55,733 nt of DNA from an uncultured Candidatus Saccharibacteria bacterium (GTDB lineage Bacteria > Patescibacteriota > Minisyncoccia > UBA6257 > JAGOQP01): assembly GCA_964420205.1 (NCBI GenBank), contig CAYQSO010000003.1, positions 22,828-78,560 on the forward strand, read 5' to 3'. Shown piece after piece: positions 17,767 through 55,733 of this stretch. The position numbers were made by a program, and so were the translations under genes. The number at the start of each line of letters is the position of its first letter. Position 1 is the stretch's first letter. Below the pieces are notes generated by a model, which ran no database searches, was not told the DNA's origin, and saw nothing but the letters and a program-made list of their open reading frames with translations.

Positions 17767-18818
17767 TAAATAATAAAACAATAACATTTTTTGATGGGGA
17801 TGATGTAAGTATTGTAAAAGAACTACCATCGAATATATACTCTCTTAGGGAAGGGAAGTTTGGTTTGTATCTAGAAATAGAAGAAGAGTTTAAGCTTCCC
17901 GATAAAATTTATGGGGATACTATAAAAATATCAGATAGAGTAAAGAAAACTTTCAATAGTAGGACTACTAATACAGGTGTGCTTTTACATGGTGCTAAAG
18001 GTTCTGGAAAAACATTACTTACAAAGTATATATGTAACGACCTTTTAAAAACTCAAAATTTACCTGTAATTAAAGTTAATAAGGCTTTTGATCCCGAAGG
18101 GTTTAGTTCGTTTATGAATTCTCTAAAACAAGAAGTAGTTGTACTTTTTGATGAGTTTGAAAAAACCCATCCACAGGATAGGAGAAATGAAGACAATCCC
18201 AACCCTCAACAAACTCTTTTAAGTTTATTTGATGGTGTCTATAATTCTAAGAAGTTATTCTTGTTAACTTGTAACGATAGTTATGGGATTGACGACCATT
18301 TTAAAAATAGACCAGGAAGAATTTATTACTCAATTGAGTTTTCTGATATAGAAAAAGATGTTTTAGAAGAGTACTGTAAAGATAATTTAGTTAATAAAGA
18401 TAATCTTGAAAGTGTGATTATGATGTCTAATTTTTATGACCTCTTTACTTTTGATATCTTAGCAGCTCTTGTTGGGGAAATGAATTTACATGAAATAGAT
18501 GCGTTTGAGGCAATTAAATATTTAAATGTGGGTTGTAATTCTGATAACGATAGACTTTATAAAGTAACAGTGGTTAAAAATGGGAAAGTGTTTGAAACCA
18601 ATGATAAGGAAAGATTGAATCCTACTTCATCTAGAGACTATTGGTTCGATGATATTAAGGGAGATAGGATATTTGAAGGGACGTTAACACCTGACATGGT
18701 AGTTAAGGTAGATTTAAATATACCTTCCTATACTTATCAATTTGATAAAGATACTTTAATTATATTTGAAGGATTATATGAAAAAGATTTTAATCTTAAA
18801 AAGTTTTTAACAGTGTAG
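17751..18818 (+). CDS. AAA+ ATPase
   Basis: 355 aa; Walker A GAKGSGKTLL, Walker B VVLFDEFE, sensor-1 LLTCN, RPGR arginine motif. Confidence 0.8.
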   Translation: MSSFIVNNKTITFFDGDDVSIVKELPSNIYSLREGKFGLYLEIEEEFKLPDKIYGDTIKISDRVKKTFNSRTTNTGVLLHGAKGSGKTLLTKYICNDLLKTQNLPVIKVNKAFDPEGFSSFMNSLKQEVVVLFDEFEKTHPQDRRNEDNPNPQQTLLSLFDGVYNSKKLFLLTCNDSYGIDDHFKNRPGRIYYSIEFSDIEKDVLEEYCKDNLVNKDNLESVIMMSNFYDLFTFDILAALVGEMNLHEIDAFEAIKYLNVGCNSDNDRLYKVTVVKNGKVFETNDKERLNPTSSRDYWFDDIKGDRIFEGTLTPDMVVKVDLNIPSYTYQFDKDTLIIFEGLYEKDFNLKKFLTV

Positions 18819-30044: not shown

Positions 30045-30213
30045 TGAAGCAAAAGATTTTTTATTCGAGTTAATAGGGGCTGCTGTAGATGCCATAGAGA
30101 TAGAAGAAGACGGTATACTATATCTAAACTCAAATAAAATGAATATAGTAGTTATGAGTGATAAAGATATAAGAGAAGAGTTAGAAAAGTTTTCGGATAG
30201 TTTATGTTATTAG
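30031..30213 (+). CDS. Hypothetical acidic protein
   Basis: 60 aa; aaggag SD upstream. Its 3' end forms the left direct repeat of the cassette. Confidence 0.6.
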   Translation: MKLSNEAKDFLFELIGAAVDAIEIEEDGILYLNSNKMNIVVMSDKDIREELEKFSDSLCY

Positions 30214-30233
30214 AGAAAGAGGATAAGATAATG
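30171..30233. repeat. Left copy of about 60-bp direct repeat flanking the 30231 cassette
   Basis: aagagaagagttagaaaagttttcggatagtttatgttattagagaaagaggataagataatg. Confidence 0.85.
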
Positions 30234-30746
30234 AAAATAACATTAGAACAAATTAAGGACCTTGATCTTTACATTGGTGGCTATAAAAAATTAGCCAATT
30301 ATATAAGAGATAATAATATTAAAGAACCTTTTGATTGCAAAATCATTAAAGAGAGTAATGACGTTGATGATTTTCTTTGGGTGATGTGCCATGAGCAATT
30401 TATCGATGCCAAAACATTAAGGCTCTTTGCTGTTTGGTGTGCTAGAGAAGTATTGAAATTAATAAAAAACCCAGATCCAAGAAGCATAAAAGCTTGTGAT
30501 GTTACGGAAAAATTTGCTAATGGAAAAGCTACTCAGGAAGAATTAAATATTGCTAAAGATGCTGCTTGGGATGCTGCTTGGACTGCTGGGGCTGATGCTG
30601 CTAGGGCTGCTACTGCTAGAGTTGCTGCTAGGGCCGCTATCGGGGCTGCTAGGGCTGCTGGGGCTGATGCTGCTAGGGCTGCTAGGGCTGCTGGGGCTGA
30701 AAAAGAAAAGCAATTTAAAAAGTTGTGTGAAATGGCAGATTTATAG
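30231..30746 (+). CDS. Alanine-repeat protein, paralog B (possibly Imm5-like helical domain plus (A-A-R/W-x)n tail)
   Basis: Track ORF 30204 trimmed to ATG 30231 (gagg SD). CAREVLKLIKNPDPRSIKACDVTEKFANGKATQEELN, then DAAWDAAWTAGADAARAATARVAARAAIGAARAAGADAARAARAAGA. Confidence 0.75.
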   Translation: MKITLEQIKDLDLYIGGYKKLANYIRDNNIKEPFDCKIIKESNDVDDFLWVMCHEQFIDAKTLRLFAVWCAREVLKLIKNPDPRSIKACDVTEKFANGKATQEELNIAKDAAWDAAWTAGADAARAATARVAARAAIGAARAAGADAARAARAAGAEKEKQFKKLCEMADL

Positions 30747-33869: not shown

Positions 33870-34991
33870 ATGCTTTTTAGTAAAACAGCTTATAATATTG
33901 AAATATCCCATATGATTGGAATGATTTTACAAAATCAGTCTGAAATAATACCTAATAAATTTACTAATAGGTATGATTGTTCCATGTTTATGGATAGGTT
34001 TATTAATAAAATAAATACACAGGAAGATATAGTAAAAGAAACAAAACCTTTATTAAAAGATATAAATAATATTGAATCTTATTTAGGGATACTTTGTAGC
34101 GAAGCCATAGAAAAAGGGTTCTATAAGACTACAGATGAAATATTATTTAATTTAATAACACAAGACAATTTAGATAACTGGTGTATTTCAGATATCAATG
34201 GAAGTAGACAGATATTTTGTGTTAAAAGCATGAAAGATATAATAGAATTATTAGAATTTGATACAGTTAATAATCTTGTTATAATGCCGGAAATTTGGTT
34301 TTCTCCCAATGTGTATAAAAAAGTGATTAAATTGTTAAAACCGTTCGACGTAGAAAGAACAAAAAAGAGTGGAAGAACTGCTATAAAAATTTTAAGCAAA
34401 GATTTTACAATAGAAGATGTTAAACAAATTCTATATGATTCACAAGAGCTTTGTGTTAGCGGTAAGTTCGATTTCTTCCCCACCCCCGATGAGCTTGTTA
34501 AAATTTGTCATGATTTATTAGAATATGAAGTAGGTAATTTAGTGTTAGAGCCTTCTGCCGGAACAGGTAATTTAATAAAAGATTTTCCATATAAAAGTAA
34601 TATTGTAACAGTTGAAGCAAATAAATTTTTCTGTAATATTTTAAAAAGAAAATACCCTGAAATAATAAATAAAAATTGTTTATTTGAGGAATTCAAAACA
34701 GAAAATTCTTTCGATAGAATTATAATGAATCCCCCATTTTCAAAACGACTTGATGCAAAACATATTTTAAAAGCATTTGATATGCTTACTAATGATGGTA
34801 TATTAGTAGCTATTCATTCTACCGGAATACTAAGTGGTTCTGATAAAAACTCTAAAGCATTTCAAAAATTATATGAAAAAAATGGGGTATTTCAGAAAGT
34901 TTATAAAGGGATGTTTGATAGTTCTGGGAAAGGAACTAAAATAGATGTAGTATTAAGTAAATTTAGGAAAGTTAATAATGAAAACATATAA
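33870..34991 (+). CDS. N6-adenine DNA methyltransferase (gamma class) with about 200-aa N-terminal domain of unknown function
   Basis: 373 aa; motif I LEPSAGTGNL precedes motif IV IIMNPPFS. Confidence 0.75.
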   Translation: MLFSKTAYNIEISHMIGMILQNQSEIIPNKFTNRYDCSMFMDRFINKINTQEDIVKETKPLLKDINNIESYLGILCSEAIEKGFYKTTDEILFNLITQDNLDNWCISDINGSRQIFCVKSMKDIIELLEFDTVNNLVIMPEIWFSPNVYKKVIKLLKPFDVERTKKSGRTAIKILSKDFTIEDVKQILYDSQELCVSGKFDFFPTPDELVKICHDLLEYEVGNLVLEPSAGTGNLIKDFPYKSNIVTVEANKFFCNILKRKYPEIINKNCLFEEFKTENSFDRIIMNPPFSKRLDAKHILKAFDMLTNDGILVAIHSTGILSGSDKNSKAFQKLYEKNGVFQKVYKGMFDSSGKGTKIDVVLSKFRKVNNENI

Positions 34992-43654: not shown

Positions 43655-43690
43655 TAGAAATCACTCTTTTGGGTGATTTCTATTTTTTAT
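43655..43690 (+). terminator. Rho-independent terminator
   Basis: tagaaatcac / gtgatttcta 10-bp stem, 8-nt loop, then TTTTTT. Confidence 0.75.
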
Positions 43691-43773
43691 ATTTTTATTA
43701 TTCTACAAATATAGAAATTGAATTTCATATTAATGTAGAAAAAGAAAAGAAAGAAGAGAAGGAAGGTTTAAAA

Positions 43774-44280
43774 ATGACTAGACAAAAATTAGAGGTCAAC
43801 CCACAAGACATCAAAAAAGCGATAGAAAAATCAGGTCTATCAGAAGCTAAATTTGCTAAGAAAGCAGGAATTAACATTAACACTTTAATTAAGTATAAAC
43901 AAGGGAAGATACAGAATCCTAGGGAAGAAGTATTTAATAAAATAAATACCCTTGTGAGAAGTACTTTAAAAAATAATAAAAAGAAAGTGGACTATAAAAA
44001 AGAAAGAACAACTATTCCATCACTTCCGTATAAAGAAAAAATCCATGAAATAAACGTTCCCAGAGTCAGAGCTCTTATTTCTTATGAAGTAGTTACAGAA
44101 GTAGACTTAGACGTGGTAGAGAAAATTACTAATACATCTCCGCTTACAACAGAGAGAATTTACCAAAATCCTAAAAATATGAGAGTACGGAGTGTTGGTA
44201 TGGAAGAAGGAAGATTTGATATTCTTAAAATTCTTCATGAGCTCATAGAGTCAGAACCTGTTCCTCAATATATAAGATAG
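43774..44280 (+). CDS. XRE-type helix-turn-helix protein
   Basis: Track ORF 43669 (TTG start) trimmed to ATG 43774; IKKAIEKSGLSEAKFAKKAGININTLIKYKQGK. Confidence 0.65.
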   Translation: MTRQKLEVNPQDIKKAIEKSGLSEAKFAKKAGININTLIKYKQGKIQNPREEVFNKINTLVRSTLKNNKKKVDYKKERTTIPSLPYKEKIHEINVPRVRALISYEVVTEVDLDVVEKITNTSPLTTERIYQNPKNMRVRSVGMEEGRFDILKILHELIESEPVPQYIR

Positions 44281-44300
44281 GTAAAATAAAAACGATATGA

Positions 44301-44329
44301 AAAAAGACTATTTAAAAATAGTCTTTTTT
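44301..44329 (+). terminator. Rho-independent terminator
   Basis: aaaaagactattt / aaatagtcttttt palindrome ending in a T-run. Confidence 0.7.
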
Positions 44330-44331
44330 CA

Positions 44332-44360
44332 TTGACAATTAATGCACGATAGTTTAAACT
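44332..44360 (+). promoter_or_regulatory. Sigma-A type promoter
   Basis: TTGACA (44332-44337), 17-bp spacer, TAAACT (44355-44360). Confidence 0.55.
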
Positions 44361-44617: not shown

Positions 44618-45113
44618 TAAGCGAAAGATACAAAAACAATATAATTATGCTAATAGAGATAAAACGCATAGTCGTAATCGTTTGATACACTTTATACGTC
44701 GTTTCTATGAACGACATAAAATTTCTATCTCTTTAGCTAATTTAGATAGTTTTAAGGAACAGATAAGAGTTGGTAAAGCTCTACTAGTAAAGATAAATAA
44801 AGATGGGTCAAAAGAGTATATTGTTAAATTAGCTGTATCCAATAGTGAAATTAGGGACATAGTTATTATAGTTAAAAAAGACCATGAAAAATTAACATGG
44901 ATAACTACTTATCCAGCAGAGCAAAAACATTTTGATTTAGCAAATAATAGGTTTAAAAAAATAAGAGAAAAACGCAGGAAAACAAGATTGCGTAATAAGT
45001 ATAAGATAAAAGAAAGAGATATTGTAGGATTTATGGATTTTACAAAATATTTTTCTTATGCGATTCTTTTTGTATATATTTTAAGTTTAATAATATTGGT
45101 AGGAGTAATGTAA
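44610..45113 (+). CDS. Basic protein with C-terminal transmembrane helix (GTG start)
   Basis: 167 aa; C-terminal FSYAILFVYILSLIILVGV. Confidence 0.6.
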   Translation: MSSKRKIQKQYNYANRDKTHSRNRLIHFIRRFYERHKISISLANLDSFKEQIRVGKALLVKINKDGSKEYIVKLAVSNSEIRDIVIIVKKDHEKLTWITTYPAEQKHFDLANNRFKKIREKRRKTRLRNKYKIKERDIVGFMDFTKYFSYAILFVYILSLIILVGVM

Positions 45114-45538
45114 TGAATATAAAAACTGAAATTAAAGGGACATATTTTCGTGGTAAAGAAATTATGAAGATAGTTAATGAAATGAACACAAATGTCTCTC
45201 TTTTTTTAGAAAGAGAATATGACAATCTCCATGATGAAAATGCTGTTAAAATAATATATAATCATGAGGATTTTTCAGAATCTCTTCATATAGGATATGT
45301 TCCGAAAGAGATAAGTGAGAAGTTAGCAGAAGAGCTAGACAACGGAAAAGAACATTGGATAACTTATCTCGGAAATAAAAAAATTCAAATAAATGAAAAA
45401 CAATACAAATCTGTTTCTTTAAAAGAGAAAAAATACGAAATGTTTATAGAAGATGATTATGATCCGTTATTAGATGCTACACCAGATATTTTTGTAGATG
45501 CTAGTGACTTAGATAATTATTTATTGGATTTATTATAG
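45113..45538 (+). CDS. HIRAN-domain protein
   Basis: 141 aa; GTYFRG...VSLFLEREYDNLHDENAVKI...LHIGYVPKEISEKLAEELDNG matches the HIRAN pattern. Confidence 0.7.
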   Translation: MNIKTEIKGTYFRGKEIMKIVNEMNTNVSLFLEREYDNLHDENAVKIIYNHEDFSESLHIGYVPKEISEKLAEELDNGKEHWITYLGNKKIQINEKQYKSVSLKEKKYEMFIEDDYDPLLDATPDIFVDASDLDNYLLDLL

Positions 45539-45736: not shown

Positions 45737-46525
45737 ATGATCATCGGAATATGTGCACCAACACAACAAAGTGGTAAAACAACTGTAGCTAATTATTTTT
45801 GTGAAAAATATGGATTTAAGAAAAAAGCATTTGCTACAACTCTCAAGAAAATGTTGATAGTACTCTTAAAAGATTTAAAAATACATGAAGAAAGAATTTT
45901 CTATTACACAGAAGTGGCAAAGGAAGAGGAAATACCAGAACTAGGTAAAAGTTATCGTTATCTTATGCGTTCTCTTGGTACTGAATGGGGCAGAGTACTT
46001 ATTCATGAAGATACTTGGGTAAAGACTACAATGGCTTCTCTCTCTTCTTTAAATCAGGTAGTTTTTGAAGACATAAGAATGTTAAATGAACTAAAAGCAA
46101 TTAAAGATAGAAAAGGTATTTTAATAAAAATAATAAACCCAAGAGTTGATAACGACAGGTCTCACGCTTCTGAGGGTGAATTGGACAATGTGCAGGAAGA
46201 TTATTTAATTATTAATGATGGAACTTTTGAAGACTTGTATAAAAAAGTAGATGAAATAATGGATAAAGAAATTAGATTGGGGCTAGAAAAAGAAATGCAA
46301 GAAAAAATAAATAATGTAACAATACAGTGCCCAAAGTGCGGACAGATTTATACTATCTCTGAAAACATGATCTCAGACAGCATTGTTACATGTCAAAATA
46401 ACAATTTTTATAAAGATGGAATTTTCCATAGATTCTGTGGAACAAAATACTTACAAAAATTACATATAGTAGAAAAATATGATAAATACATAAGGGATTT
46501 ACTTCACGCAACCAGAGGTCATTAA
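45737..46525 (+). CDS. P-loop dNMP-kinase-like protein fused to a C-terminal zinc ribbon
   Basis: 262 aa; P-loop ICAPTQQSGKTTVA; LMRSLGTEWGR...DTWV resembles the phage deoxynucleoside-monophosphate kinase family; C-terminal CPKCGQ...C..C. Confidence 0.55.
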   Translation: MIIGICAPTQQSGKTTVANYFCEKYGFKKKAFATTLKKMLIVLLKDLKIHEERIFYYTEVAKEEEIPELGKSYRYLMRSLGTEWGRVLIHEDTWVKTTMASLSSLNQVVFEDIRMLNELKAIKDRKGILIKIINPRVDNDRSHASEGELDNVQEDYLIINDGTFEDLYKKVDEIMDKEIRLGLEKEMQEKINNVTIQCPKCGQIYTISENMISDSIVTCQNNNFYKDGIFHRFCGTKYLQKLHIVEKYDKYIRDLLHATRGH

Positions 46526-46527
46526 AT

Positions 46528-47274
46528 ATGGGGTTAATAGTTCTTTTCTTACAATATGATACAGAAAAATACCCTGGATCACTTCTTTATTTAGAAAAGT
46601 ACTTAAAAACTATTAGACAACATTCTGTTAATAAGATAGTTATTATAGATAATAAAAAAGAAGAAGATAGCTTAGAAATTATAGATAATTGTAAAGTTAA
46701 AATTGGGGGGGATAATTCTCATTGGGAGTTTTCTGGTTGGAATAAAGGGTTAGAGCTTATTAAGACGATGAAGCTTTCTTATGACGCTATTCTTTTTGTA
46801 AATGATTCTTTCCAAAACCCCGCTTTTATTTCACCCACTAGAATAATATGTGATGAAAGTATAAGTAGATGTATAGGTGAAAAAGCTTTGTTAGGTGCAA
46901 GGGGTGGTTCTGGAAAAGATCTTTTCTTCATAGGTACTTACAATTTATATACGTGGGTAAGAACACATTGTTTTATGATGGAAAAGTCTGTTATAAAAAT
47001 AGTTAAAGATTTAATAACATTTCATAGGCCTTTCATTGATATGGCTACTTTATCAAAAGTAGAACCACCCTATTTTAGCGATACACAAGCAATAAGTAAT
47101 AATTTAAAAAATAAAATTATTAATTGGTTATATGAAGGTGGTACATGGCACAGTGCTTTTAAATTTGAAGATGACCCTGAACTATTCAAAATGAAATCTT
47201 TAGCATACCTCAATGAATTGGGGTTGACAGCACGAGCAGAAAAGAGTAGAATAGCTACTATTAAACTAGATTAA
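46528..47274 (+). CDS. Hypothetical protein, possibly GT-A-fold glycosyltransferase-like
   Basis: 248 aa; starts 3 nt after the upstream stop; KIVIIDNKKEED and ILFVNDSF are weakly GT-A-like; contains a G7 tract. Confidence 0.6.
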   Translation: MGLIVLFLQYDTEKYPGSLLYLEKYLKTIRQHSVNKIVIIDNKKEEDSLEIIDNCKVKIGGDNSHWEFSGWNKGLELIKTMKLSYDAILFVNDSFQNPAFISPTRIICDESISRCIGEKALLGARGGSGKDLFFIGTYNLYTWVRTHCFMMEKSVIKIVKDLITFHRPFIDMATLSKVEPPYFSDTQAISNNLKNKIINWLYEGGTWHSAFKFEDDPELFKMKSLAYLNELGLTARAEKSRIATIKLD

Positions 47275-47289
47275 ATTAGAGAATTATAA

Positions 47290-47934
47290 ATGAATACATT
47301 AGAAAAATACGATAATTTCATATTTGACCTTGATGGGACTTTAGTAGACTCTGCTTACGATATTATTATATATTTAAAGCAGGCTTACCAATCAATAGGT
47401 ATTAAAGATATTAATATACCTTCTACTGTTATTGGCCCCCCGTTAAGTGAAATAATAAATACTCTTACTCCTGAATTACCGGAAGAAAAGAAATTTTTAG
47501 TAGTGAGTAGATTTAAAAATTATTGTGATAATAATCCACATGATCGGATAACTCCTTATCCAAATGTAAAAGAAATTTTACATATTTTAGAAAATAAAAA
47601 GAAAAAGATTTTCTTAGCTACTAATAAACGTTTTAAATCGTCAATAAGTATATTAGAAAATTTTAACATACTATCACATTTTTCAGATATTATGTCATCG
47701 GATTATATGGTAGGTACTACTATATCTAAAAGTAAGATGTTAGAAATTTTAATAGAAAAACACTTGCTATTAAAAAATAAAACGATTATGATAGGAGACT
47801 CTTTATCAGATTATACAGCTTCTTATGATAACGGTATTGAATTCATATTTTGTTCGTACGGGTATGGAGAAGACTGTGATATACCGTTGCAAAAGAAAAG
47901 AATAAATTGTTTAGAAGGGGTTTTAAATGACTAA
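47290..47934 (+). CDS. HAD-superfamily phosphatase (Gph-like)
   Basis: 214 aa; motif I FIFDLDGTLVDS, LATNK, motif IV GDSLSD. Confidence 0.8.
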   Translation: MNTLEKYDNFIFDLDGTLVDSAYDIIIYLKQAYQSIGIKDINIPSTVIGPPLSEIINTLTPELPEEKKFLVVSRFKNYCDNNPHDRITPYPNVKEILHILENKKKKIFLATNKRFKSSISILENFNILSHFSDIMSSDYMVGTTISKSKMLEILIEKHLLLKNKTIMIGDSLSDYTASYDNGIEFIFCSYGYGEDCDIPLQKKRINCLEGVLND

Positions 47935-49690
47935 AATAACAGTTTCAGAATACATAGTGAAATACTTAGAGAATATTGGAGTAGAGTATGTATTTTCTGT
48001 GGTAGGTGGAGGAAGCATGTTTTTAAACTCTGCTTTTTCAAATAGTAAAAAGATTAAGGTTATTTATTTTCACCATGAACAAGCCTGTGCAATTGCAGCA
48101 GAGGGATACGCTAGAGTAAGCGGTAACCTAGCAGTAGTTTGCGTAACTACTGGTCCTGGGGGTTTAAATACTTTAACAGGCTTAATGGGTGCATGGACAG
48201 ATAGCGTACCCGTATTATTTATCTCAGGTCAGGTTAAGAAGGAACATATAACTAACTTTAATGGTTTTCAATATAATTACAGACAAATAGGAGACCAAGA
48301 AGTTAATATTGTAGAGATCGTAAAACCTCTTACTAAGTATGTGGAGCAGGTAAAAAAACCGAGAGAAATTAACCGAATAATAAAGAACGGTGTATGGAAT
48401 GCACTTGAACACAGACAAGGCCCTACTTGGGTAGATATACCAATAGACATACAAAACTCTTTTGTAATAAATGAAAGTTTTGATACATTTTTACCCAAAA
48501 ATTTCATATGTCCAACAAATAAAGAGGATAAAAAATTATATAGAAAACTAAACGAAGCCAAAAGACCTCTTATAGTAGCAGGGAAAGGTATTAATATATC
48601 TAATTCTAGGAAAGAATTTTTACAATTTATAGAAAAGTTAAATATTCCAGTAGTAACATCTTTTACAGGATTTGATATAATACCGTCAGACCACCCTTTA
48701 TTTGTAGGGAGATGTTCTACAGTTGGAACAAGGTCGGGTAATTTTGCTGTACAAAACTCAGACTTTATACTATTTTTAGGAACTAGAAATAATATAAGAC
48801 AAATCGGTTATAATGGTGATTTTGCGAAAAACGCTTATAAAGCTTGTGTAGATATAGACTGGAATGAGCTTAACAAACCTACAATCAAATATAATTTTAG
48901 TATTTGTGCAGAGTTAAGAAGCTTTTTTAATTATTTCAACTATAATTATGAAAGAGATAATTCTGACTGGATTAATAATTGTAAAAAAACACAACAAAAA
49001 TACCCTGTAGTACTACCTGAATATAAAAAGCAAGACCAAATAAACCCTTATTACTTTATTGAAGAGTTAACTAAGCGATTAAGTGGAGAAGATATAGTAG
49101 TAGCAAGTAATGGTACTGCTTGTGTAGCGACTTATCAAGCTTCTATAGTTAAGAAAGGACAGACGTATATTCAAAATTCAGGTTGTGCTTCGATGGGTTA
49201 CGGACTTCCAGCAGCTATAGGAGCATGTTTTGCAAATAATAGAAAAGAAGTTATTTGTATTGAAGGCGATGGGAGTATTATGATGAATTTACAAGAGTTA
49301 CAAACAGTAAAGCATCATAATCTCCCTATAAAAATATTTCTTTTATGTAATAATGGCTATGCTTCTATAAAACAAACACAAAATAATTTTTTTAATGGTA
49401 ATTTACATGGTTGTAATGAAGAAACGGGAGTTAGCCTCCCTAAGTGGTATGCAATAGCAGAATCTTTTGGTCTTGAATATGAAGCTCTTGATAATGTATA
49501 CAGTATTGGAAAAGTATTGGATTCAAATCGATCTGTTTTATGTACAGTTTATCTAGGGGATGGGTATGTTTTTCAACCAAAATGTAGTTCAAAAAAACTA
49601 GAAGACGGGAGTATTATATCTTCTGCTTACGATGATATGTACCCTTTCTTAAGTAGAGAGGAATATAAGGAGAATAAGATTGTTAAATAA
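47927..49690 (+). CDS. Thiamine-diphosphate-dependent enzyme, acetolactate-synthase-like (YerE-like candidate)
   Basis: 587 aa; HHEQACAIAAEGYAR, VTTGPGGLNTLTGLMGAWTDSVPVLFISGQ, ThDP motif GDGSIMMNLQEL...NNGYASI. Confidence 0.85.
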   Translation: MTKITVSEYIVKYLENIGVEYVFSVVGGGSMFLNSAFSNSKKIKVIYFHHEQACAIAAEGYARVSGNLAVVCVTTGPGGLNTLTGLMGAWTDSVPVLFISGQVKKEHITNFNGFQYNYRQIGDQEVNIVEIVKPLTKYVEQVKKPREINRIIKNGVWNALEHRQGPTWVDIPIDIQNSFVINESFDTFLPKNFICPTNKEDKKLYRKLNEAKRPLIVAGKGINISNSRKEFLQFIEKLNIPVVTSFTGFDIIPSDHPLFVGRCSTVGTRSGNFAVQNSDFILFLGTRNNIRQIGYNGDFAKNAYKACVDIDWNELNKPTIKYNFSICAELRSFFNYFNYNYERDNSDWINNCKKTQQKYPVVLPEYKKQDQINPYYFIEELTKRLSGEDIVVASNGTACVATYQASIVKKGQTYIQNSGCASMGYGLPAAIGACFANNRKEVICIEGDGSIMMNLQELQTVKHHNLPIKIFLLCNNGYASIKQTQNNFFNGNLHGCNEETGVSLPKWYAIAESFGLEYEALDNVYSIGKVLDSNRSVLCTVYLGDGYVFQPKCSSKKLEDGSIISSAYDDMYPFLSREEYKENKIVK

Positions 49691-50738
49691 TTTTTATAAG
49701 GGTAAAAAAGTATTAGTTACAGGTGGATTTGGGTTTAAAGGTTCTTGGTTATGTAAGTGGCTAAATATGCTTGGAGCAGAAGTAAGTGTGTATTCAGAAG
49801 TACTCTACTTAAATAATTTATTATTTTCTTCTTTGAAGTTATCGAAAACTACTAATACTAAAATAGGTAGTTGTGAATTTAAGGGTAATTTTAAAAATTT
49901 TTTACAGGAAGTTAAACCCGACATAATATTCCATTTAGCAGCTCAGTCTCTTGTACGCAAATCTTATAAAAGTCCGTATGATACTTTTTTATCTAATATA
50001 ATGGGAACTGTTAGTCTTCTACAAAATGTACACGAGCTAGGTCTTAATTGTTCAATAGTAAATGTTACCTCAGATAAATGCTATAAAAATAATAATAAAC
50101 AAAGAAAATTTTTTATTGAAAATGAACCGTTAGGGGGTTATGACCCTTATAGTGCTAGTAAAGCATGCTCTGAAATAGTAACAGAATCTTATTATAATTC
50201 TTTCTTTAAAGAGAAGATAGGAGTAGCAACTGCACGGGGAGGAAATGTTATAGGAGGAGGAGACTGGTCTGAAGATAGGTTGATTCCAGATATAATTAAT
50301 GCTATAATAAATGAAGAAAGTATTACTTTAAGATTTCCAAATGCTACTAGACCATGGCAACACGTTTTAGATTGCTTATCAGGTTACTTAACACTTGGAA
50401 AAGTCGTATCAGAAAACCCAATAAATTATAGTGGTGCCTATAATTTCGGACCTGATACATATAAACAACTAACAGTAAAAGAAACAGTAGAAAAATGTCT
50501 TTCAATTTGGAATATAAATACTAAATATGTTATTGAACAAGAAGACAAATTATATGAAAGTAGTTTCTTGGGACTAGATATTACTAAGTCAAAAGAAAAG
50601 TTAGGCTGGAAACCTTTGTATAATTATGACGAAGCAATAAAAAAAACTATGTTATGGTATAAAGAGTTTTATAAAAATAGAAATAGGATATTAATATTTA
50701 CTGAAAAACAAATAGAGGAGTATATGAGTGAATTATAA
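49680..50738 (+). CDS. rfbG: CDP-glucose 4,6-dehydratase
   Basis: 352 aa; TTG start with aaggag 7 nt upstream; VTGGFGFKGSWL, YSASK, GNVIGGGDW..DRLIPD, RPWQHVLD, all as in RfbG/DdhB. Confidence 0.85.
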   Translation: MLNNFYKGKKVLVTGGFGFKGSWLCKWLNMLGAEVSVYSEVLYLNNLLFSSLKLSKTTNTKIGSCEFKGNFKNFLQEVKPDIIFHLAAQSLVRKSYKSPYDTFLSNIMGTVSLLQNVHELGLNCSIVNVTSDKCYKNNNKQRKFFIENEPLGGYDPYSASKACSEIVTESYYNSFFKEKIGVATARGGNVIGGGDWSEDRLIPDIINAIINEESITLRFPNATRPWQHVLDCLSGYLTLGKVVSENPINYSGAYNFGPDTYKQLTVKETVEKCLSIWNINTKYVIEQEDKLYESSFLGLDITKSKEKLGWKPLYNYDEAIKKTMLWYKEFYKNRNRILIFTEKQIEEYMSEL

Positions 50739-51444
50739 AAAAGAACCTGTAGTTATATTAGCAGGTGGGAAAGGTACTAGGATAACTGAGGAAACTCAAC
50801 ATATACCTAAGCCTTTGATTAATGTTGGTGATAAACCCATAATAAAAAGAGTTATTACACATTATATTTCTTATGGATACAAAAATTTTATTATTTTAGG
50901 TGGGTACAAAGTAGATAAGTTAAAAGAGTATTTTAATTCCGATGAATTAAAAGATAATGTTTCTATAAAAGTAGTAAATACTGATTTAGAAACGCTAACA
51001 GCCGGTAGATTATTACAAGTTAAAGATTTAATAGGAAACTCTACTTTTCATTTAACTTATGGAGATGGTGTTAGTGATATTGATTTGGATAATTTAGTTA
51101 AGTTTCATAAAAAACATGGTAAAATAGGAACTGTAACAGCGGTGAGATTAAAAGAACGTTTTGGTATTTTAAAAATAGGATGTTATGGTACTGTATTAGG
51201 GTTTCAGGAGAAATGTGAGAGTAAAGAATACATAAATGGTGGATTTTTTGTATTTGAACCTGAAATATTTGATTATATTAAGGGGGATGAAATGTTAGAA
51301 ATACAGCCGTTAAATAAACTTTCTATTGATGGGGAATTAATGGCTTATAAACATGACGGCTTTTGGAGATGTATAGATACTTACAAAGATAAACTAGAAT
51401 TAGATAAATATTATAGTGAGGAGAAAAATGAAAATATTAGATAG
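50728..51444 (+). CDS. rfbF: Glucose-1-phosphate cytidylyltransferase
   Basis: 238 aa; GTG start; ILAGGKGTR, TYGDGVSDIDL, FQEK, INGGFFVF, GELMAYKHDGFW..IDTYKDK, as in RfbF/DdhA. Confidence 0.85.
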   Translation: MNYKKEPVVILAGGKGTRITEETQHIPKPLINVGDKPIIKRVITHYISYGYKNFIILGGYKVDKLKEYFNSDELKDNVSIKVVNTDLETLTAGRLLQVKDLIGNSTFHLTYGDGVSDIDLDNLVKFHKKHGKIGTVTAVRLKERFGILKIGCYGTVLGFQEKCESKEYINGGFFVFEPEIFDYIKGDEMLEIQPLNKLSIDGELMAYKHDGFWRCIDTYKDKLELDKYYSEEKNENIR

Positions 51445-52786
51445 TACACTTAAAAATACAATTAAGTTCTTTAGTTATCTATTCTATTTAAAAAACTATA
51501 AAAATGTTAAATCAAGTTACATACCACCCTCAGCTAAGTATTTAGATGAAAAAGAGTTATTTAATATGATAGATGCTAGTTTAGATATGTGGTTAACTTC
51601 GGGAAGATTTTGTAAAGAATTCGAGAAAAGATTTTCAAAATATCTAGGAGTAGAGCATTGTAATTTAGTAAATTCAGGTTCTTCTGCAAATTTAATTGCT
51701 ATAACTGCATTAACGTCACCTTTATTAGGTGATAAAAGGTTAAAAGAAGGTGACGAAGTTATTACTGTAGCTGCTGGGTTCCCCACTACAGTAAATCCTA
51801 TAGTACAAAATAGATTAGTTCCTGTTTTTGTAGACGTAGATATTCCTACTTATAATATAAATGTATTACAGCTAGAAGAAGCCCATAGTGAAAAGACTAA
51901 GGCTGTTATGATAGCACATACTCTTGGAAATCCATTCAATATAAAAGCTGTAAAAGATTTTTGTAATAAATATGACTTATATTTAGTGGAAGATTCATGT
52001 GATGCGCTTGGGTCAAAATACTGGGTAAATCCTAATGAATTGAGTGGTAAATGTGGTACTTTCGGAGATATAGGAACGTTTAGTTTTTATCCTGCCCACC
52101 ACATAACAATGGGTGAAGGTGGGGCTGTTGTTACCGATAATAAATTGTTAAATAAAGCTATTATTTCTATTAGAGACTGGGGTAAAGAATGTAATTGCGC
52201 CCCTGGACAAGATAATAGATGTGGTAAAAGATTTACCCAGCAGCATGGTGACCTACCATACGGATTCGATCATAAATATGTATATTCCCATTTAGGATAT
52301 AATTTAAAAACTGTTGATTGGTGTGGTGCTATTGGATTAGCACAATTAGATAAACTAAATAAGTTTATTTTTGATAGACAGTTAAATTTTCATTATTTAT
52401 GGAGCGAATTAAAAAAATATTCCGATTATATTATTTTACCGGAACCAACTATAAATTCTAACCCATCATGGTTCGGATTCCCAATAACTATCAAAGAAGA
52501 TGTTCCATTCACAAGAAAGGGCTTAATTCAGTATTTAGAAAGTAGGGGAGTTGGAACAAGACTGTTATTTGGGGGAAATTTAACAAAGCAACCTACTTAT
52601 AAAGACGTTACTTATAGGATAATAGGAGATCTTAAAAATACAAATATTGTAATGGAAAGAACTTTTTGGATTGGGGTACACCCTAATATAAAAGACCTTC
52701 AAATAGAATATATTTCAAATGTGTTTGGTGAGTTTTTTAGTAAGGTCCGAGACTTAGAAGAAACATTTAAACAAGAAAAGAGGTAA
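51428..52786 (+). CDS. rfbH: CDP-4-keto-6-deoxyglucose 3-dehydrase (E1; RfbH/DdhC-like, DegT fold)
   Basis: Track ORF 51416 trimmed to ATG 51428 (aggag SD). FSFYPAHHITMGEGG has His where aminotransferases have the Schiff-base Lys. CNCAPGQDNRC is the C-x-C-x7-C iron-sulfur motif. Confidence 0.8.
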   Translation: MKILDSTLKNTIKFFSYLFYLKNYKNVKSSYIPPSAKYLDEKELFNMIDASLDMWLTSGRFCKEFEKRFSKYLGVEHCNLVNSGSSANLIAITALTSPLLGDKRLKEGDEVITVAAGFPTTVNPIVQNRLVPVFVDVDIPTYNINVLQLEEAHSEKTKAVMIAHTLGNPFNIKAVKDFCNKYDLYLVEDSCDALGSKYWVNPNELSGKCGTFGDIGTFSFYPAHHITMGEGGAVVTDNKLLNKAIISIRDWGKECNCAPGQDNRCGKRFTQQHGDLPYGFDHKYVYSHLGYNLKTVDWCGAIGLAQLDKLNKFIFDRQLNFHYLWSELKKYSDYIILPEPTINSNPSWFGFPITIKEDVPFTRKGLIQYLESRGVGTRLLFGGNLTKQPTYKDVTYRIIGDLKNTNIVMERTFWIGVHPNIKDLQIEYISNVFGEFFSKVRDLEETFKQEKR

Positions 52787-52788
52787 AG

Positions 52789-53799
52789 TTGATTTTTAAA
52801 CCATTTTTTATAAATCACAATATGTACTTCGGAGACGAAGATAATGTTAAAGAATTTAAAAGAATAGCAGGTAATACGGGTAATTCTTATATTACATATT
52901 CGTTAATTAACATAATATACGGAAAGTTTAATCGTAATTTTGTTACAGGGATAGATAATATTTATAGTTATAACTTTGATAAGTACCAAGAAAAAGACTT
53001 AGAGTATATTAATAACGAATGTACACATGCTATTTTTATTCTACAAGACCAAATAAGAAGAGAAGATAAGAATAGTATTAGACTCCCTTTTGAAAAGTTA
53101 AACCCTTTTTTACAGAGTATAAAAGTTCCTATTGTAGTTATGAGTATAGGGGCAAATAGTTTTACTCCATATGAATCAGACTTCCATACTTACTTAGAAA
53201 CAGATTTAATAAAATTTCTATATATTTTATCTGAAAAAAGTAATTTAGTCGGATTGCGAGGAGAATATACTGAAAGTATTTTTGAAAAACTCGGTATTCA
53301 CAATACGTTAATAATAGGCTGTCCGTCTTTTTTCAAAAACGGAAGAAATAAAGTTATAACTAAAAAAGAGTATAATTCAAATTTTAAAATAGCATCCACA
53401 CCCTCTTATGCTTTTAAGTATCCCTTTAACCCTAATATAGAGGTATTTTTACAAGATGAGTTCACACATGATAAATGCCCTTATGCTTGCCATATTTTTT
53501 CAGATATGGAACAATGGGAGAATAAACTAAAAGAGTTTGATTTTTTTGTTGGAACAAGATTACATGGTTCTATAGTAGCTCTTAATGCGGGAATTCCTGC
53601 ATTATGCATGAATGGGGATATGAGAGCAAAAAGTGTTTGCAAATATTTGAAAATACCACTAAATGTTGGTATAATAAATGAATCTGATATAAATAAAGTA
53701 TATGAAGTTTGTGACTTTACTGAGATGAATAGAAATTACAATAATCTAAGAGAAAGATTTTTATATTATTTAAGAATGAATGGAGTACCACATGTCTAA
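52789..53799 (+). CDS. Polysaccharide pyruvyl transferase family protein
   Basis: 336 aa; TTG start with agagg SD; GNTGNSYI and FVGTRLHGSIVALNAGIPAL match the PS_pyruv_trans pattern. Confidence 0.7.
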   Translation: MIFKPFFINHNMYFGDEDNVKEFKRIAGNTGNSYITYSLINIIYGKFNRNFVTGIDNIYSYNFDKYQEKDLEYINNECTHAIFILQDQIRREDKNSIRLPFEKLNPFLQSIKVPIVVMSIGANSFTPYESDFHTYLETDLIKFLYILSEKSNLVGLRGEYTESIFEKLGIHNTLIIGCPSFFKNGRNKVITKKEYNSNFKIASTPSYAFKYPFNPNIEVFLQDEFTHDKCPYACHIFSDMEQWENKLKEFDFFVGTRLHGSIVALNAGIPALCMNGDMRAKSVCKYLKIPLNVGIINESDINKVYEVCDFTEMNRNYNNLRERFLYYLRMNGVPHV

Positions 53800-55081
53800 A
53801 AAACTAGAAGACTTGTTAGAAATAAGTTTAATAACTTACAACAGAGCAGAAGATTTAAAAAACACACTAAACCAATTAATAGATAGTCCTATATCAGTAT
53901 GCGATATAACTATACTAGATAATGCTTCTACAGATAACACAGAAGAAATTGTTAATTCTTTTAAAGATAGGTTGAAATTAACATATATTAAAAATAATAA
54001 AAATATAGGTGGGAATGCCAATATTGTTAGAGGGTTTGAAATAGCAAATAAACCTTATGTTTGGGTACTATGTGATGATGATAATTACAAATGGAGTGCT
54101 TGGCCAGAAATAGAAAAACATATTATGGAAGAAAAAGCAGATGTTATTTTTGTCCAAGATTTTTATGACACTGAATCAGAAAGGGTGTATCACGCTGCTG
54201 GAGTATATTTGGCTATATATAAAACAAGTAATATAGATAGTACATCACTTGTTACAATGTATAATAACGTTGTTAATATGTTTCCACACGCAGCATTATA
54301 CATTTCTATCCTTAATAAAGGGGGATATGTCGTACACCCACACGTTACAGTAGTATATGCAGGGGTAAAAAATTGGTCTGGAGAAACCTATAATAGGGGG
54401 TTGGACAAGTCCCAGTTAACCTATATCCAGAAAACTAATTACTGGTTTGTTTGTTATATGAGAACACTTGCGTTGATTAATGATGTTAAATTTAGGTCTG
54501 AAATAATTAACGGAACTAAACATTGTTGTGATAGTTTTGAAAATTTATTAGCACATAAGTTATGGCAAAACATGGCTATGCATAATTCGTCAGGATATAA
54601 TTTTAGGTCTATCTATTATATATTGGATAAAGAACAAAGAAAACTATATAAAAAATGTTATAAAAGAGCTCTTACAAAATATAGGAGAGATGGAGAAAAG
54701 GCTCTTCCTCAAACAGAATCAGATTGGGTTAACTATTTTAAAAAAGTAAATAATATTAATAAATTAAGAGAAATTGTCAAAAAGAATAAAGGAAAGAAAG
54801 TTGCTATTTATGGTGCAGGAAGCGTAACTAAGGCTCTTATGCGAATTGATAATGATATCTTTAAAGATATTAAGTATATTTCAGATATAAAATATAATAA
54901 TGTAGGTATTGATAAAGATATAGAGGAGTTTATATGTTTGCCCCCGGAAAATCTAAAAGAGTTAAACCCCGACGTTATTTTAGTGTCTTTATTACGTTTT
55001 AAAGAAGTTACTGAAAGGTTAAAAAATATGGGGGTGAATAGTAAATTTGTTAAAATTATCCATGGGTGGGATGGTCTCTAA
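53792..55081 (+). CDS. Family-2 glycosyltransferase with C-terminal extension
   Basis: Track ORF 53780; ATG 53792 preferred; ISLITYNRAEDL...ITILDNASTDNT...VLCDDD. Confidence 0.75.
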   Translation: MSKKLEDLLEISLITYNRAEDLKNTLNQLIDSPISVCDITILDNASTDNTEEIVNSFKDRLKLTYIKNNKNIGGNANIVRGFEIANKPYVWVLCDDDNYKWSAWPEIEKHIMEEKADVIFVQDFYDTESERVYHAAGVYLAIYKTSNIDSTSLVTMYNNVVNMFPHAALYISILNKGGYVVHPHVTVVYAGVKNWSGETYNRGLDKSQLTYIQKTNYWFVCYMRTLALINDVKFRSEIINGTKHCCDSFENLLAHKLWQNMAMHNSSGYNFRSIYYILDKEQRKLYKKCYKRALTKYRRDGEKALPQTESDWVNYFKKVNNINKLREIVKKNKGKKVAIYGAGSVTKALMRIDNDIFKDIKYISDIKYNNVGIDKDIEEFICLPPENLKELNPDVILVSLLRFKEVTERLKNMGVNSKFVKIIHGWDGL

Positions 55082-55733
55082 TGAAAAAAATATTATTACT
55101 AGGTGGTTCAGGAGATATAGGAAAGGGAATTTTAAATTCCTTTCTCGTAGATAAGTATGAGATATACTCACCTACAAGCAAAGAACTTAATTTACTAAGC
55201 ATGAGTAGTGTTAATAACTTTTTTATACAGAATAAAATAAAATATTATGACACTTGTATTTTCGCTGCTTCTAAACCAGCTAAAATACTAGAAGGTTCTT
55301 ATGGCACGAGATATTTTAGCGACACCGGAGTGTGTTTTGAAAATCTAAAAATGTTCTTTAATTTTATTGATTATGAAATTAATTATAAAAAGTTAATTTA
55401 TTTGGGCAGCGGTGCTTGTTACGATAAAAGTAAAGAACTTAATAATGTAACAGAAAGTAAATTAAATAATTTCATCCCTGAAACAGAACATGGATTATAT
55501 AAACATATAATATCACGTTATATAGAAAAAACCGATAGATGTACTAATTTAATTTTATTTGGTATTTTTTCTATGTATGAGAATGATTTAAGATTTATTA
55601 CAAATACTATTAAAAAATGTATTAGAGAAGATGATATTATAATTAAAGAAAATAGACTGATGTCCTATTTATATATTGATGATTTTATTAAAATTTTAGA
55701 CTATTTTATAGAGAATGATACAAAATATAAAAC
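55081..55733 (+). CDS. NAD(P)-dependent sugar epimerase/reductase-like (SDR fold), 5' partial
   Basis: Not in the track because no stop lies in the window. TAATG overlap with the upstream gene. MKKILLLGGSGDIGKGI Rossmann motif; open to the window end. Confidence 0.55.
   Translation, partial: MKKILLLGGSGDIGKGILNSFLVDKYEIYSPTSKELNLLSMSSVNNFFIQNKIKYYDTCIFAASKPAKILEGSYGTRYFSDTGVCFENLKMFFNFIDYEINYKKLIYLGSGACYDKSKELNNVTESKLNNFIPETEHGLYKHIISRYIEKTDRCTNLILFGIFSMYENDLRFITNTIKKCIREDDIIIKENRLMSYLYIDDFIKILDYFIENDTKYK

Follow-up and report, generated by a model that had tools for sequence, protein, structure and literature searches.

A probable phage-borne operon for a CDP-activated branched-chain 3,6-dideoxyhexose and its transfer

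The 55,733-nt stretch of contig CAYQSO010000003.1 analysed here (positions 22,828 to 78,560; assembly GCA_964420205.1 of an uncultured Candidatus Saccharibacteria bacterium), referred to as the window, ends in an operon whose genes are numbered g1 to g17, with g1 to g10 lying inside the window. With a probability of roughly 0.7, this operon is best explained as a phage-borne gene set by which a long keto-acid donor would be coupled to a cytidine diphosphate (CDP)-activated dideoxy sugar and the branched product transferred in the cytoplasm. An earlier note on this DNA, made from the sequence alone, had already proposed a phage-borne operon for a CDP-activated branched 3,6-dideoxyhexose and its transfer. 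This is supported by the protein families, the orthology of the 3-dehydrase E1, the score of the thiamine diphosphate (ThDP) enzyme and the phage-like flanks. The new aspects are the presence of a YerE-type branched-sugar operon in a phage and a variant in which a NeuB-family synthase replaces an aldolase and is accompanied by an AroB-like enzyme and an FGGY kinase, whereas the pathway type itself is known in bacteria.

Operon layout and core sugar enzymes

Ten successive open reading frames (ORFs) on the + strand occupy positions 45737 to 55733 in the ORF list. The junctions from g1/g2 to g5/g6 measure +2, +15, -8, -11 and -11 nt in this order. The following ones depend on the start codon: g6/g7 is -17 nt with ATG 51428 or -29 nt with GTG 51416, g7/g8 is +2 nt with TTG 52789 or +35 nt with the gene-caller start at 52822, and g8/g9 is -8 nt with ATG 53792 or -20 nt with ATG 53780; g9/g10 is -1 nt. 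Overall, the junctions range from -29 to +35 nt, and apart from the choice of start codons they match the earlier description of coupled genes with gaps and overlaps of -14 to +15 nt. At least ten genes had been expected, and the extension of the sequence downstream, proposed in the earlier note as a way to find the operon end, yielded seven further genes after g10, followed by a switch of the coding strand. This extension was possible with a second public assembly of the same DNA (ENA ERZ23495300, scaffold_254; one mismatch in 11,942 overlapping bases), in which the operon runs about 5.5 kb past the window edge. The whole operon thus comprises 16 to 17 genes in about 15 kb, of which the window holds the first two-thirds. 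Positions beyond the window are given as L002 coordinates. Promoter and terminator scans returned nothing above chance.

The families of g1 to g10 were assigned with Pfam and NCBIfam hidden Markov models, matches to PDB sequences and structure checks, and each family that had been proposed for the ten genes was found. The predicted core of the pathway consists of five of them, the last being a short-chain dehydrogenase/reductase (SDR):

47927 to 49690, + strand: g4, YerE-family ThDP-dependent carboligase (TPP_enzyme N, M and C domains)
49680 to 50738, + strand: g5, CDP-glucose 4,6-dehydratase, RfbG/DdhB (TIGR02622)
50728 to 51444, + strand: g6, glucose-1-phosphate cytidylyltransferase-like protein, RfbF/DdhA (NTP_transferase, E 7e-25)
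51428 to 52786, + strand: g7, E1, CDP-6-deoxy-L-threo-D-glycero-4-hexulose-3-dehydrase, RfbH/DdhC/AscC (NF011936)
55081 to 55733, + strand: g10, extended SDR cut at the window edge (full gene of 294 aa at L002 11290-12174; Epimerase family, E 2e-12 on the full protein)

Judged by its sequence, g7 is a predicted true orthologue of the Yersinia E1. It scores 664 bits with NF011936 against a cutoff of 423 and is about 60 % identical over 410 residues to the Y. pseudotuberculosis enzyme (PDB 3bcx; 540 bits, residues 29-438). In the alignment, g7 carries the E1 histidine in FYPAHHITMGEGG, where the wild type 3bcx reads 'ypaHhitmgegg' and the mutant 3bb8 'ypaKhitmgegg'. This histidine stands in place of the lysine that usually binds pyridoxal phosphate. 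The cysteines of EDSC and CNCAPGQDNRC (EDSC...CNC-x7-C) align with those of EDCC and CYCAPGCDNTC in E1, and we take them to be the [2Fe-2S] cluster ligands described for this enzyme. The dehydratase g5 reaches 422 bits with TIGR02622 (cutoff 278; residues 5-349 of 352), compared to 121 bits with the dTDP-glucose dehydratase model. For g6, the best NCBIfam model is TIGR02623 with 212 bits against a cutoff of 300, split into two stretches. It is 38-51 % identical to the gene preceding RfbG in bacterial clusters, and in 48/80 bacterial loci a gene of its type is found linked to both RfbG and RfbH, which supports this role. Both the family assignments and the E1 residues therefore support the entry into CDP-3,6-dideoxyhexoses via RfbF, RfbG and E1 that had been suggested before.

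Based on its sequence relationships, g4 is the enzyme predicted to add the C-4 branch. It remains under every acetolactate synthase equivalog cutoff (329 vs 538), has the canonical GDG motif (EGDGS), and matches JanthE (PDB 8rph) best, with 370 bits as opposed to 240 bits for the best acetolactate synthase. JanthE is a YerE-like, ketone-accepting carboligase (PMC12188165, PMC12247030). In 84 related loci, 80 of them viral from IMG/VR and four bacterial, ThDP genes of the g4 type are linked to E1 in 64, to a dehydratase in 58 and to an SDR in 73 cases; the corresponding numbers for 80 bacterial loci are 50, 54 and 50. Homologues of g10 were found in 73/84 and 50/80 of these loci, mostly adjoining the ThDP gene, which makes g10 a candidate for a YerF-like reductase of the branch carbonyl.

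The closest described counterpart of these core genes is the yersiniose A pathway of Y. pseudotuberculosis (DdhA, DdhB, DdhC/E1, DdhD/E3, YerE and YerF). Both share the entry enzymes, with E1 being about 60 % identical, and both pair a YerE-type ThDP carboligase with an SDR. In contrast to the yersiniose pathway, the operon lacks E3, its ThDP enzyme is closer to JanthE-type relatives, and it has further genes for NeuB, an AroB-like enzyme, an FGGY kinase, a HAD protein and a pyruvyl transferase; the donor is probably not pyruvate. It also lies in a phage and has no O-antigen assembly genes. The yersiniose logic put forward in the earlier note thus holds for the combination of a YerE-type ThDP enzyme with an SDR, but not for the two-carbon branch, against which the NeuB, AroB-like, FGGY and SDR genes and the neighbourhood statistics speak. 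An E3 reductase (DdhD/AscD), which the earlier note had proposed to look for downstream, does not follow: none was found among the 17 operon genes or other ORFs of at least 300 aa, nor in L003, L167 and L168, the three bacterial loci with Pfam calls.

The keto-acid donor and the proposed pathway

The assumption of a longer donor is based on the genes that follow g10:

L002 12158-13228: g11, NeuB-family synthase (Pfam NeuB domain)
L002 13225-14340: g12, AroB-like enzyme (both 3-dehydroquinate synthase (DHQS) Pfam domains)
L002 14340-15473: g13, FGGY kinase of 377 aa (homologues are FGGY carbohydrate kinases)
L002 15470-16150: g14, classical SDR

Going by its scores, g11 appears to be a NeuB-family member of a distinct subgroup. 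It matches the Pfam NeuB domain with an E-value of 2e-39 and stays far under the cutoffs of the PseI (132 vs 340 bits) and NeuB (122 vs 400 bits) models, and its best PDB match is the uncharacterised 3g8r with 239 bits, compared to 86 bits for NeuB. Likewise, g12 reaches 266 bits with TIGR01357 (cutoff 305) and 305 bits with TIGR04425, the AroB-related phospholyase model (cutoff 400); the DHQS 3clh is its best PDB match (150 bits). The PDB sequence search returned nothing for g13 or g15.

For a neighbourhood analysis, the ORFs of 82 mainly viral loci were clustered. Beside the ThDP gene, 42 of these loci have only an HpcH gene, 26 only a NeuB gene, 14 neither and none both (p = 1.4e-11). In 80 independent bacterial loci, the numbers are 42, 25, 10 and 3 (p = 1.3e-9), and two of the three loci with both genes contain weak, distant NeuB paralogues. 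Either gene lies immediately upstream of the ThDP gene, at times with a 4-nt overlap. NeuB-type enzymes yield a 4-hydroxy-2-keto acid, namely a 3-deoxy-2-ulosonic acid. Since NeuB and HpcH exclude each other in the same slot and the product of NeuB is a keto acid, we infer that NeuB supplies the donor of the ThDP enzyme. A long hydroxylated 3-deoxy-2-ulosonic acid instead of pyruvate is therefore slightly favoured as the donor, in which case the product would be a higher-carbon sugar resembling caryophyllose or aurantose.

This reading can be compared with characterised and proposed systems. YerE, ErwE and MMAR_2332 couple pyruvate or aldolase-made hydroxy-keto acids to CDP-4-keto-3,6-dideoxyglucose (PMC9306805, PMC12247030), and the products of YerE-type enzymes include yersiniose, erwiniose, caryophyllose and gastriose (PMC9306805). 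A unifying scheme has been described for the clusters of erwiniose (ErwE/F/I/J), caryophyllose (MMAR_2331-2333), gastriose and an R. palustris sugar, in which a C-C bond-forming enzyme provides a hydroxylated alpha-keto acid, a YerE-like enzyme couples it and a reductase acts last (PMC9306805). For MMAR_2331, the proposed donor-maker of the caryophyllose cluster, the HpcH/HpaI (citrate-lyase) aldolase family has been reported, and ErwI has been described as BphI-like (PMC9306805). Most relatives of the phage operon have an HpcH/HpaI-family aldolase partner as in these clusters. Unlike them, the operon itself has a phosphoenolpyruvate (PEP)-dependent NeuB-family synthase in the place of the aldolase, together with an AroB-like enzyme, an SDR and an FGGY kinase. 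This substitution was not found in the papers on the unifying scheme or in the searches made here.

Taken together, the following pathway is proposed. The RfbF-like g6 would activate glucose-1-phosphate with cytidine triphosphate (CTP), g5 would convert the product to CDP-4-keto-6-deoxyglucose, and g7 would strip the 3-hydroxyl to give CDP-4-keto-3,6-dideoxyglucose. In parallel, the NeuB-family enzyme would join PEP and an aldehyde to a 3-deoxy-2-ulosonic acid. Candidates for tailoring this acid further are the FGGY kinase, the AroB-like enzyme, which would eliminate phosphate, an SDR and possibly the HAD protein. The YerE-family g4 would decarboxylate this alpha-keto acid and place the acyl anion on C-4, and the SDR g10 would reduce the branch carbonyl, as YerF does. 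Decoration and transfer of the sugar would be left to the pyruvyl transferase g8, the family 2 glycosyltransferase (GT2) g9 and perhaps the GT-A-like g2. No membrane segment was predicted in any of the 17 operon proteins (no hydrophobic 19-residue stretch above Kyte-Doolittle 1.5), and because all of them are predicted to be soluble, the transfer would take place in the cytoplasm.

The genes assumed to tailor, decorate and transfer the sugar, and the remaining ORFs at the operon end, are:

46528 to 47274, + strand: g2, 248-aa protein of an unnamed family, with a GT-A or nucleotide-diphospho-sugar transferase-like fold (structure model)
47290 to 47934, + strand: g3, HAD-IA phosphatase or phosphomutase-like protein (HAD_2, E 1e-26)
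52789 to 53799, + strand: g8, polysaccharide pyruvyl transferase family (PS_pyruv_trans, E 4e-19, 69.9 bits against a cutoff of 25.3)
53792 to 55081, + strand: g9, soluble GT2 with a C-terminal Rossmann-like domain (Glycos_transf_2, E 5e-19)
L002 16143-16829: g15, 228-aa protein without assigned function
L002 16832-17026 and 17232-17507: g16 and g17, two small ORFs

While g8 clearly exceeds the family cutoff, it stays below the orthologue models CsaB (22 vs 213 bits) and WcaK (18 vs 399 bits). It is 35-39 % identical to a gene near the ThDP gene in the bacterial loci L102, L098, L117 and L124, and in L102 and L098 this homologue follows the ThDP gene immediately. The GT2 g9 has 433 aa, or 429 aa with the gene-caller start, with a weak Methyltransf_14 match in its C-terminal part and no transmembrane segment. 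In 16 of the 80 bacterial clusters, a GT2 with 31-45 % identity to g9 is encoded, and no relatives of g9 were found in IMG/VR. For g3, all scores against phosphoglycolate-phosphatase-like models are below the cutoffs; homologues occur in 19/80 bacterial cluster versions and lie between NeuB and ThDP in L131, L021 and L024. No Pfam or NCBIfam match was obtained for g2, which has 462 homologues in a family of about 460 members. Its AlphaFold model, built from 40 homologues (pLDDT 94.9), matches IspD, TarI, KdsB and GT-A glycosyltransferases best in Foldseek, with TM values of about 0.4. Based on this model, g2 could be a glycosyltransferase or a nucleotidyltransferase and is a candidate for a new family. 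The residues N42, E67, F68, K223 and N229 are invariant in this family, and g2-homologous domains (P0122-P0270) also occur fused to HAD domains and inside multi-glycosyltransferase proteins of 800-1600 aa.

Alternatively, the operon may produce two separate sugars. In this case, the ThDP enzyme would use pyruvate to form CDP-yersiniose with a C2 branch, and the NeuB, FGGY, HAD and AroB-like enzymes would form a CMP-activated ulosonic acid, perhaps via g2. A HAD phosphatase, a NeuB-type synthase and a CMP-synthetase are the known logic for Kdo, Kdn and sialic acid. The operon fits this logic: the g2 model is as similar to cytidylyltransferases (IspD, TarI, KdsB, CMP-Kdn synthetase) as to GT-A enzymes, and g2-HAD fusions exist. 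Moreover, YerE itself takes pyruvate (PMC9306805). On the other hand, the nearly perfect exclusivity of NeuB and HpcH in the same slot over about 160 loci is unexpected for an unrelated sugar, g2 is absent from every other NeuB-bearing locus examined, its Foldseek matches are low, and g11 falls far under the NeuB and PseI cutoffs. Two separate sugars are therefore considered unlikely.

Several points weigh against the proposed pathway with a long donor. As g6 is below its equivalog cutoff, its CTP specificity is inferred from its partners. With E3 missing, the electrons for E1 would probably be supplied by a host reductase; SpnQ is reportedly a precedent for an E1-type enzyme served by a general cellular reductase. 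The exclusivity of NeuB and HpcH could mark two cluster lineages instead of an equivalent function. Furthermore, the role of the AroB-like enzyme is not explained by any characterised pathway, and a true dehydroquinate-type cyclisation would destroy the alpha-keto acid that the ThDP enzyme needs. As a speculation, the AroB-like enzyme might carry out just the oxidation, phosphate elimination and reduction steps of the DHQS reaction on a phosphorylated ulosonate. With the FGGY kinase as the source of the phosphate, such a reaction would lead to a terminal-deoxy keto acid similar to the donor for caryophyllose.

In a third variant, the module contains neither HpcH nor NeuB. Here, genes for a DJ-1/PfpI-family protein and for two proteins without assigned function (families f26 and f16) lie directly upstream of the ThDP gene (L018, L022, L025, L028, L029, L031, L035, L036, L052 and L086). 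This variant may represent another route to the donor.

Bacterial and viral relatives

The ThDP enzyme belongs to a family with thousands of bacterial homologues of 45-55 % identity, which is present in at least 586 GTDB species genomes from many phyla, with Melainabacteria being closest (54 %). Six bacterial loci (L102, L152, L156, L131, L109 and L098) share between 7 (L098) and 11 genes with the phage at 27-56 % identity. Their gene order is RfbF-RfbG-RfbH-SDR-SDR-AroB-like-FGGY-NeuB-(HAD)-ThDP-(pyruvyl transferase)...GT2. Among the surroundings of the cluster in bacteria are flagellar export genes, a gene for an ABC exporter and a Wzy homologue, and such loci look like surface-glycan or flagellin-glycosylation loci. 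ABC_membrane or Wzy_C genes accompany the homologous bacterial loci with Pfam calls, but none is present in the phage operon, which, as far as the sequences indicate, would be a membrane-free, reordered copy of a widespread bacterial surface-glycan cluster. The closest homologues of the ThDP enzyme (54-55 %) were found in L003-L006, i.e. the metagenome-assembled genome (MAG) GCA_037147175.1 and relatives. In these, a cluster of dehydratase, E1, SDR, NeuB, GT2 and ThDP genes lies between the flagellar export genes flhA and fliI, which it directly follows, and two PMT_2 (GT-C) genes. Such a flagellar setting hints at glycosylation of flagellin or another protein with this sugar.

In IMG/VR, 105 contigs with a relative of the ThDP enzyme were detected (36-52 % identity), 80 loci of which entered the module survey (L007-L086). 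The recurring viral module comprises the ThDP enzyme, an SDR, an E1-like protein and a 4,6-dehydratase, plus an HpcH/HpaI aldolase or NeuB. The viral HpcH aldolase mostly occurs with an SDR and an AroB-like gene, and many glycosyltransferases and methyltransferases surround the module. In about half of the related IMG/VR loci, Shine-Dalgarno signals are missing and glycosyltransferase genes of eukaryote type (GT10, GT11 and GT34) are present; one of these loci is a giant-virus MAG (GVMAG). Some further interpretations of these loci were rejected. A shared viral backbone is not present, as no non-sugar protein of this phage is common to any of the 80 loci. A T4-like reading of some loci, suggested by a 'UvsX-like' flanking gene, was dropped due to about 24 % identity to phage records and the lack of Shine-Dalgarno signals. 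The assignment of L012-type contigs to prasinoviruses was not confirmed; some homologues lie on contigs of up to 2.4 Mb and the group may be cellular.

A comparable gene set has been published for the prasinovirus OtV5, whose ORFs 035-043 include a glycosyltransferase, an 'acetolactate synthase', a '3-dehydroquinate synthase', an epimerase, an aminotransferase-family protein and a 4,6-dehydratase (PMC2386258). Compared by published annotation only, OtV5 ORFs 035f-043f have the same module composition as the IMG/VR loci. They have been read as genes of amino-acid biosynthesis (PMC5371798). The recurring viral module of ThDP enzyme, '3-dehydroquinate synthase', SDR, DegT-family protein, 4,6-dehydratase and glycosyltransferases is probably a branched-sugar module, and going by the same annotation, the prasinovirus 'amino-acid' genes are likely to be glycan genes instead, which would be a further new aspect. 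Sugar genes in phages are known generally: virion glycosylation is known in mycobacteriophages, as cited in PMC12619734, and cyanomyoviruses carry cell-wall gene sets (PMC12801897). Like these systems and OtV5, the present operon combines virus-borne nucleotide-sugar enzymes with soluble glycosyltransferases.

No YerE-type branched-sugar operon was found in 50,697 deposited phage records. A megablast search of the operon against GenBank phages gave no match, tblastn searches with the ThDP enzyme, RfbH and NeuB gave only distant or host-contaminant matches, and the deposited phage genomes contain no ThDP homologue above 35 % identity and no close NeuB. A paper describing a branched-sugar operon of this type in a phage was not found either. 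The earlier statement that no such phage system had been described therefore stands for deposited phages and the papers found, while it has to be qualified by the wide distribution of the gene set in bacteria and by the related modules on more than 100 IMG/VR contigs.

To our knowledge, YerE-type branched sugars are known only in bacterial surface glycans and antibiotics. A phage with the whole soluble pathway and its transferases would thus be the first viral case identified as such. A review from 2025 describes viruses as unexplored for YerE-type enzymes (PMC12247030). In addition, going by the neighbourhood statistics, the pyruvate aldolase may be replaceable by a NeuB-family synthase, and an AroB-like enzyme seems to take part in the pathway. 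The operon also offers a compact 15-kb construct for a rare CDP-sugar. A more far-reaching reading is that of one mobile cassette for higher-carbon C-4-branched deoxysugars, common to many bacterial phyla, phages and giant algal viruses. It would consist of an NDP-hexose 4,6-dehydratase, an E1-like protein, a YerE-like ThDP enzyme, an SDR, HpcH or NeuB and often an AroB-like 'phospholyase', and would serve virion decoration. This reading is tentative and rather doubtful at present. If true, viral 'acetolactate synthase' and '3-dehydroquinate synthase' genes would really encode sugar-branching enzymes, and with the NeuB and AroB-like steps a new route to a keto-acid donor would be established.

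Probable carriage by a phage and possible targets of the sugar

The operon is very probably carried by a large AT-rich phage known only from metagenomes. The GC content is 0.28-0.32 on both sides, the GC content at third codon positions (GC3) is 0.196 in the operon and 0.225 upstream, and the codon frequencies are correlated with r = 0.97. A Shine-Dalgarno motif precedes 64 % of the + strand genes compared to 15 % of random positions. The similarity in composition, codon usage and Shine-Dalgarno style to the upstream region that had been reported before was thus reproduced. The same is true for the missing integration signs: no att-like repeats flank the operon, and no integrase was found among the proteins scanned, which comprise the larger ORFs of 65 kb read directly and the precomputed Pfam calls upstream. 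Genes of phage families lie upstream, as stated in the earlier note, and the region downstream is phage-like too.

A 677-aa phrog_1735 protein (26804-28837, + strand), a conserved protein of large phages without a Pfam or PDB-sequence match, is encoded upstream of the operon. Its identity amounts to 54 % with hypothetical proteins of phiCbK-like Caulobacter phages and to 52 % with those of phiMAM1-like Serratia phages, and it has homologues in 562 phage records as opposed to 24 plasmids. These plasmids are 117-360 kb in size, and 23 of the 24 are non-mobilizable. The AAA ATPase at 17751-18818 has homologues in 396 phage records and matches large myoviruses. About 90 small same-strand ORFs are mostly without homologues, and no tRNA genes were found. 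Housekeeping or conjugation genes were likewise missing among the proteins scanned or with Pfam calls in about 73 kb.

The same 73 kb contain no virion (capsid, portal), terminase or replication-polymerase gene, which counts against carriage by a phage. For this reason, the phage identity rests on homologies of accessory genes. The region could instead be a chromosome island, a plasmid or a phage-plasmid with an ordinary cellular glycan locus. In addition to the missing structural and packaging genes, the RecD2/PIF1-like helicase, the DprA-like protein, DUF4121 and the IS1595 fragment, which also occur on plasmids and integrative and conjugative elements, fit such an element, as does the phrog_1735 protein on 24 large plasmids. 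However, the ratio of 562 to 24 between phage and plasmid records for this protein, the dNMP kinase and the AAA ATPase as phage families, the many small same-strand ORFs mostly without homologues, the lack of tRNA, housekeeping and conjugation genes and an operon without the membrane genes found beside it in bacteria make a non-phage element improbable.

For the target of the sugar, a virion protein and a host glycan are roughly level, and DNA is the least likely. That the sugar is attached to a protein such as a virion protein is quite possible, if somewhat short of an even chance. As a bacterial-envelope function is impossible for viruses of eukaryotes, their related modules favour particle glycosylation as the shared use. 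Glycosylation of the virus particle is opposed by the orthology of the GT2 and the pyruvyl transferase to enzymes of bacterial surface glycans, which favours a host glycan equally.

A remodelling of the host surface, with a host glycan intermediate or host flagellin as the target, is possible to a slightly lesser degree. Here, the sugar would be fed into the lipid-linked glycan or flagellin pathway of the host, for example for blocking superinfection or keeping progeny off debris, and virions would not be decorated. The orthologues of the GT2 and the pyruvyl transferase, at 31-45 %, lie in bacterial surface-glycan clusters that adjoin an ABC exporter, a Wzy homologue or flagellar genes, and the closest homologues of the ThDP enzyme belong to bacteria of the Melainabacteria or Gastranaerophilales type with the same cluster, so that a host with a compatible acceptor is plausible. 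Candidate hosts would be gut or rumen bacteria resembling Gastranaerophilales or Clostridia. In contrast, the operon has no flippase, polymerase, initiating transferase or any other membrane protein, related modules lie on contigs resembling giant viruses of eukaryotes (PMC2386258), and 15 kb would be a large investment for an exclusion function. In either case, the operon is relevant to the question of how particles of large phages and giant viruses are shielded or directed to their targets, or how host surfaces are altered by these viruses.

The earlier note had also raised the possibility of DNA hypermodification, by which the sugar would be attached to a hydroxymethylated base and the following gene, together with a HIRAN protein, would be part of the system:

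45737 to 46525, + strand: g1, phage dNMP kinase (residues 1-175) with a C-terminal zinc ribbon (Pfam DNMK, E 8e-15; Zn_ribbon_4)

The position of these genes is in line with this idea, as g1 ends 2 nt before g2 and the HIRAN protein is encoded at 45113-45538. Phage GT-A and GT-B enzymes are also known to put diverse sugars, including Kdo and heptose, on 5-hydroxymethylcytosine, and in one published case a HAD-like enzyme and a cytidylyltransferase lie beside a DNA glycosyltransferase (bioRxiv 10.1101/2023.12.21.572611). Like the operon, the clusters for DNA hypermodification (T4 glucosyl-hydroxymethylcytosine; 5mYOX/ThyS-associated glycosyltransferases) combine a phage glycosyltransferase with sugar-activating enzymes. 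Unlike in these clusters, no thymidylate-synthase-like hydroxymethylase, C5-methyltransferase or TET/5mYOX enzyme was found among the proteins scanned, i.e. the larger ORFs of an incomplete genome, and the transferases are orthologous to bacterial glycan enzymes and not BGT- or JGT-like. The methyltransferases that are present are of the N6/N4 type. The N-terminal part of g1 has homologues of up to 45 % identity in 563 phage records, annotated as dNMP kinase (tblastn), and this family is common in phages with unmodified DNA. Elsewhere, the kinase is not linked to the module: a homologue was found in only one of the 80 related viral loci, weak (27 % identity) and several genes away from the ThDP gene. 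According to these sequence comparisons, g1 would be an ordinary nucleotide-metabolism gene of the phage and no conserved part of the sugar module; despite its position directly before g2, it is probably not a sugar enzyme. The hypermodification idea is weakened by these results, and DNA as the target is now regarded as very unlikely.

Further genes were observed around the operon. Two DNA methyltransferases are encoded on the + strand at 1776-2639 and 33870-34991. One is of the N6_N4 type (E 5e-54), and the other has an N6-MTase domain resembling anti-restriction methylases of large phages. Just upstream of the first of these genes, at 1376-1699, lies an IS1595-type DDE fragment that adjoins an HTH_17 gene on the opposite strand. 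Two phrog_18326 paralogues are located 26 kb apart on the + strand at 3730-4305 (E 5e-11) and 30204-30746 (E 2e-25). On its upstream side, the window is extended beyond position 1 by another scaffold from this sample (L169 1-8200), which encodes a 713-aa helicase of the RecD2/PIF1 type, an HSP20-like protein and a protein resembling DprA that has a YAcAr (SLOG) domain. Downstream of the operon, the - strand region L002 17626-21290 (corresponding to window positions 61417-65081) encodes a 303-aa protein in which a long N-terminal extension precedes a C-terminal Cpn10/GroES domain, as well as an HD-domain protein like the hydrolase part of RelA/SpoT and an S-adenosylmethionine (AdoMet) decarboxylase. 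For the Cpn10-like protein, deposited phages gave no match. Finally, a perfect 17-bp inverted repeat with a 2-nt loop, ATGAAAAAAGACTATTT TT AAATAGTCTTTTTTCAT, was found at 44297-44332 in the gap between an HTH gene (43669-44280) and the next gene, which looks like a bidirectional terminator or an operator-like hairpin.

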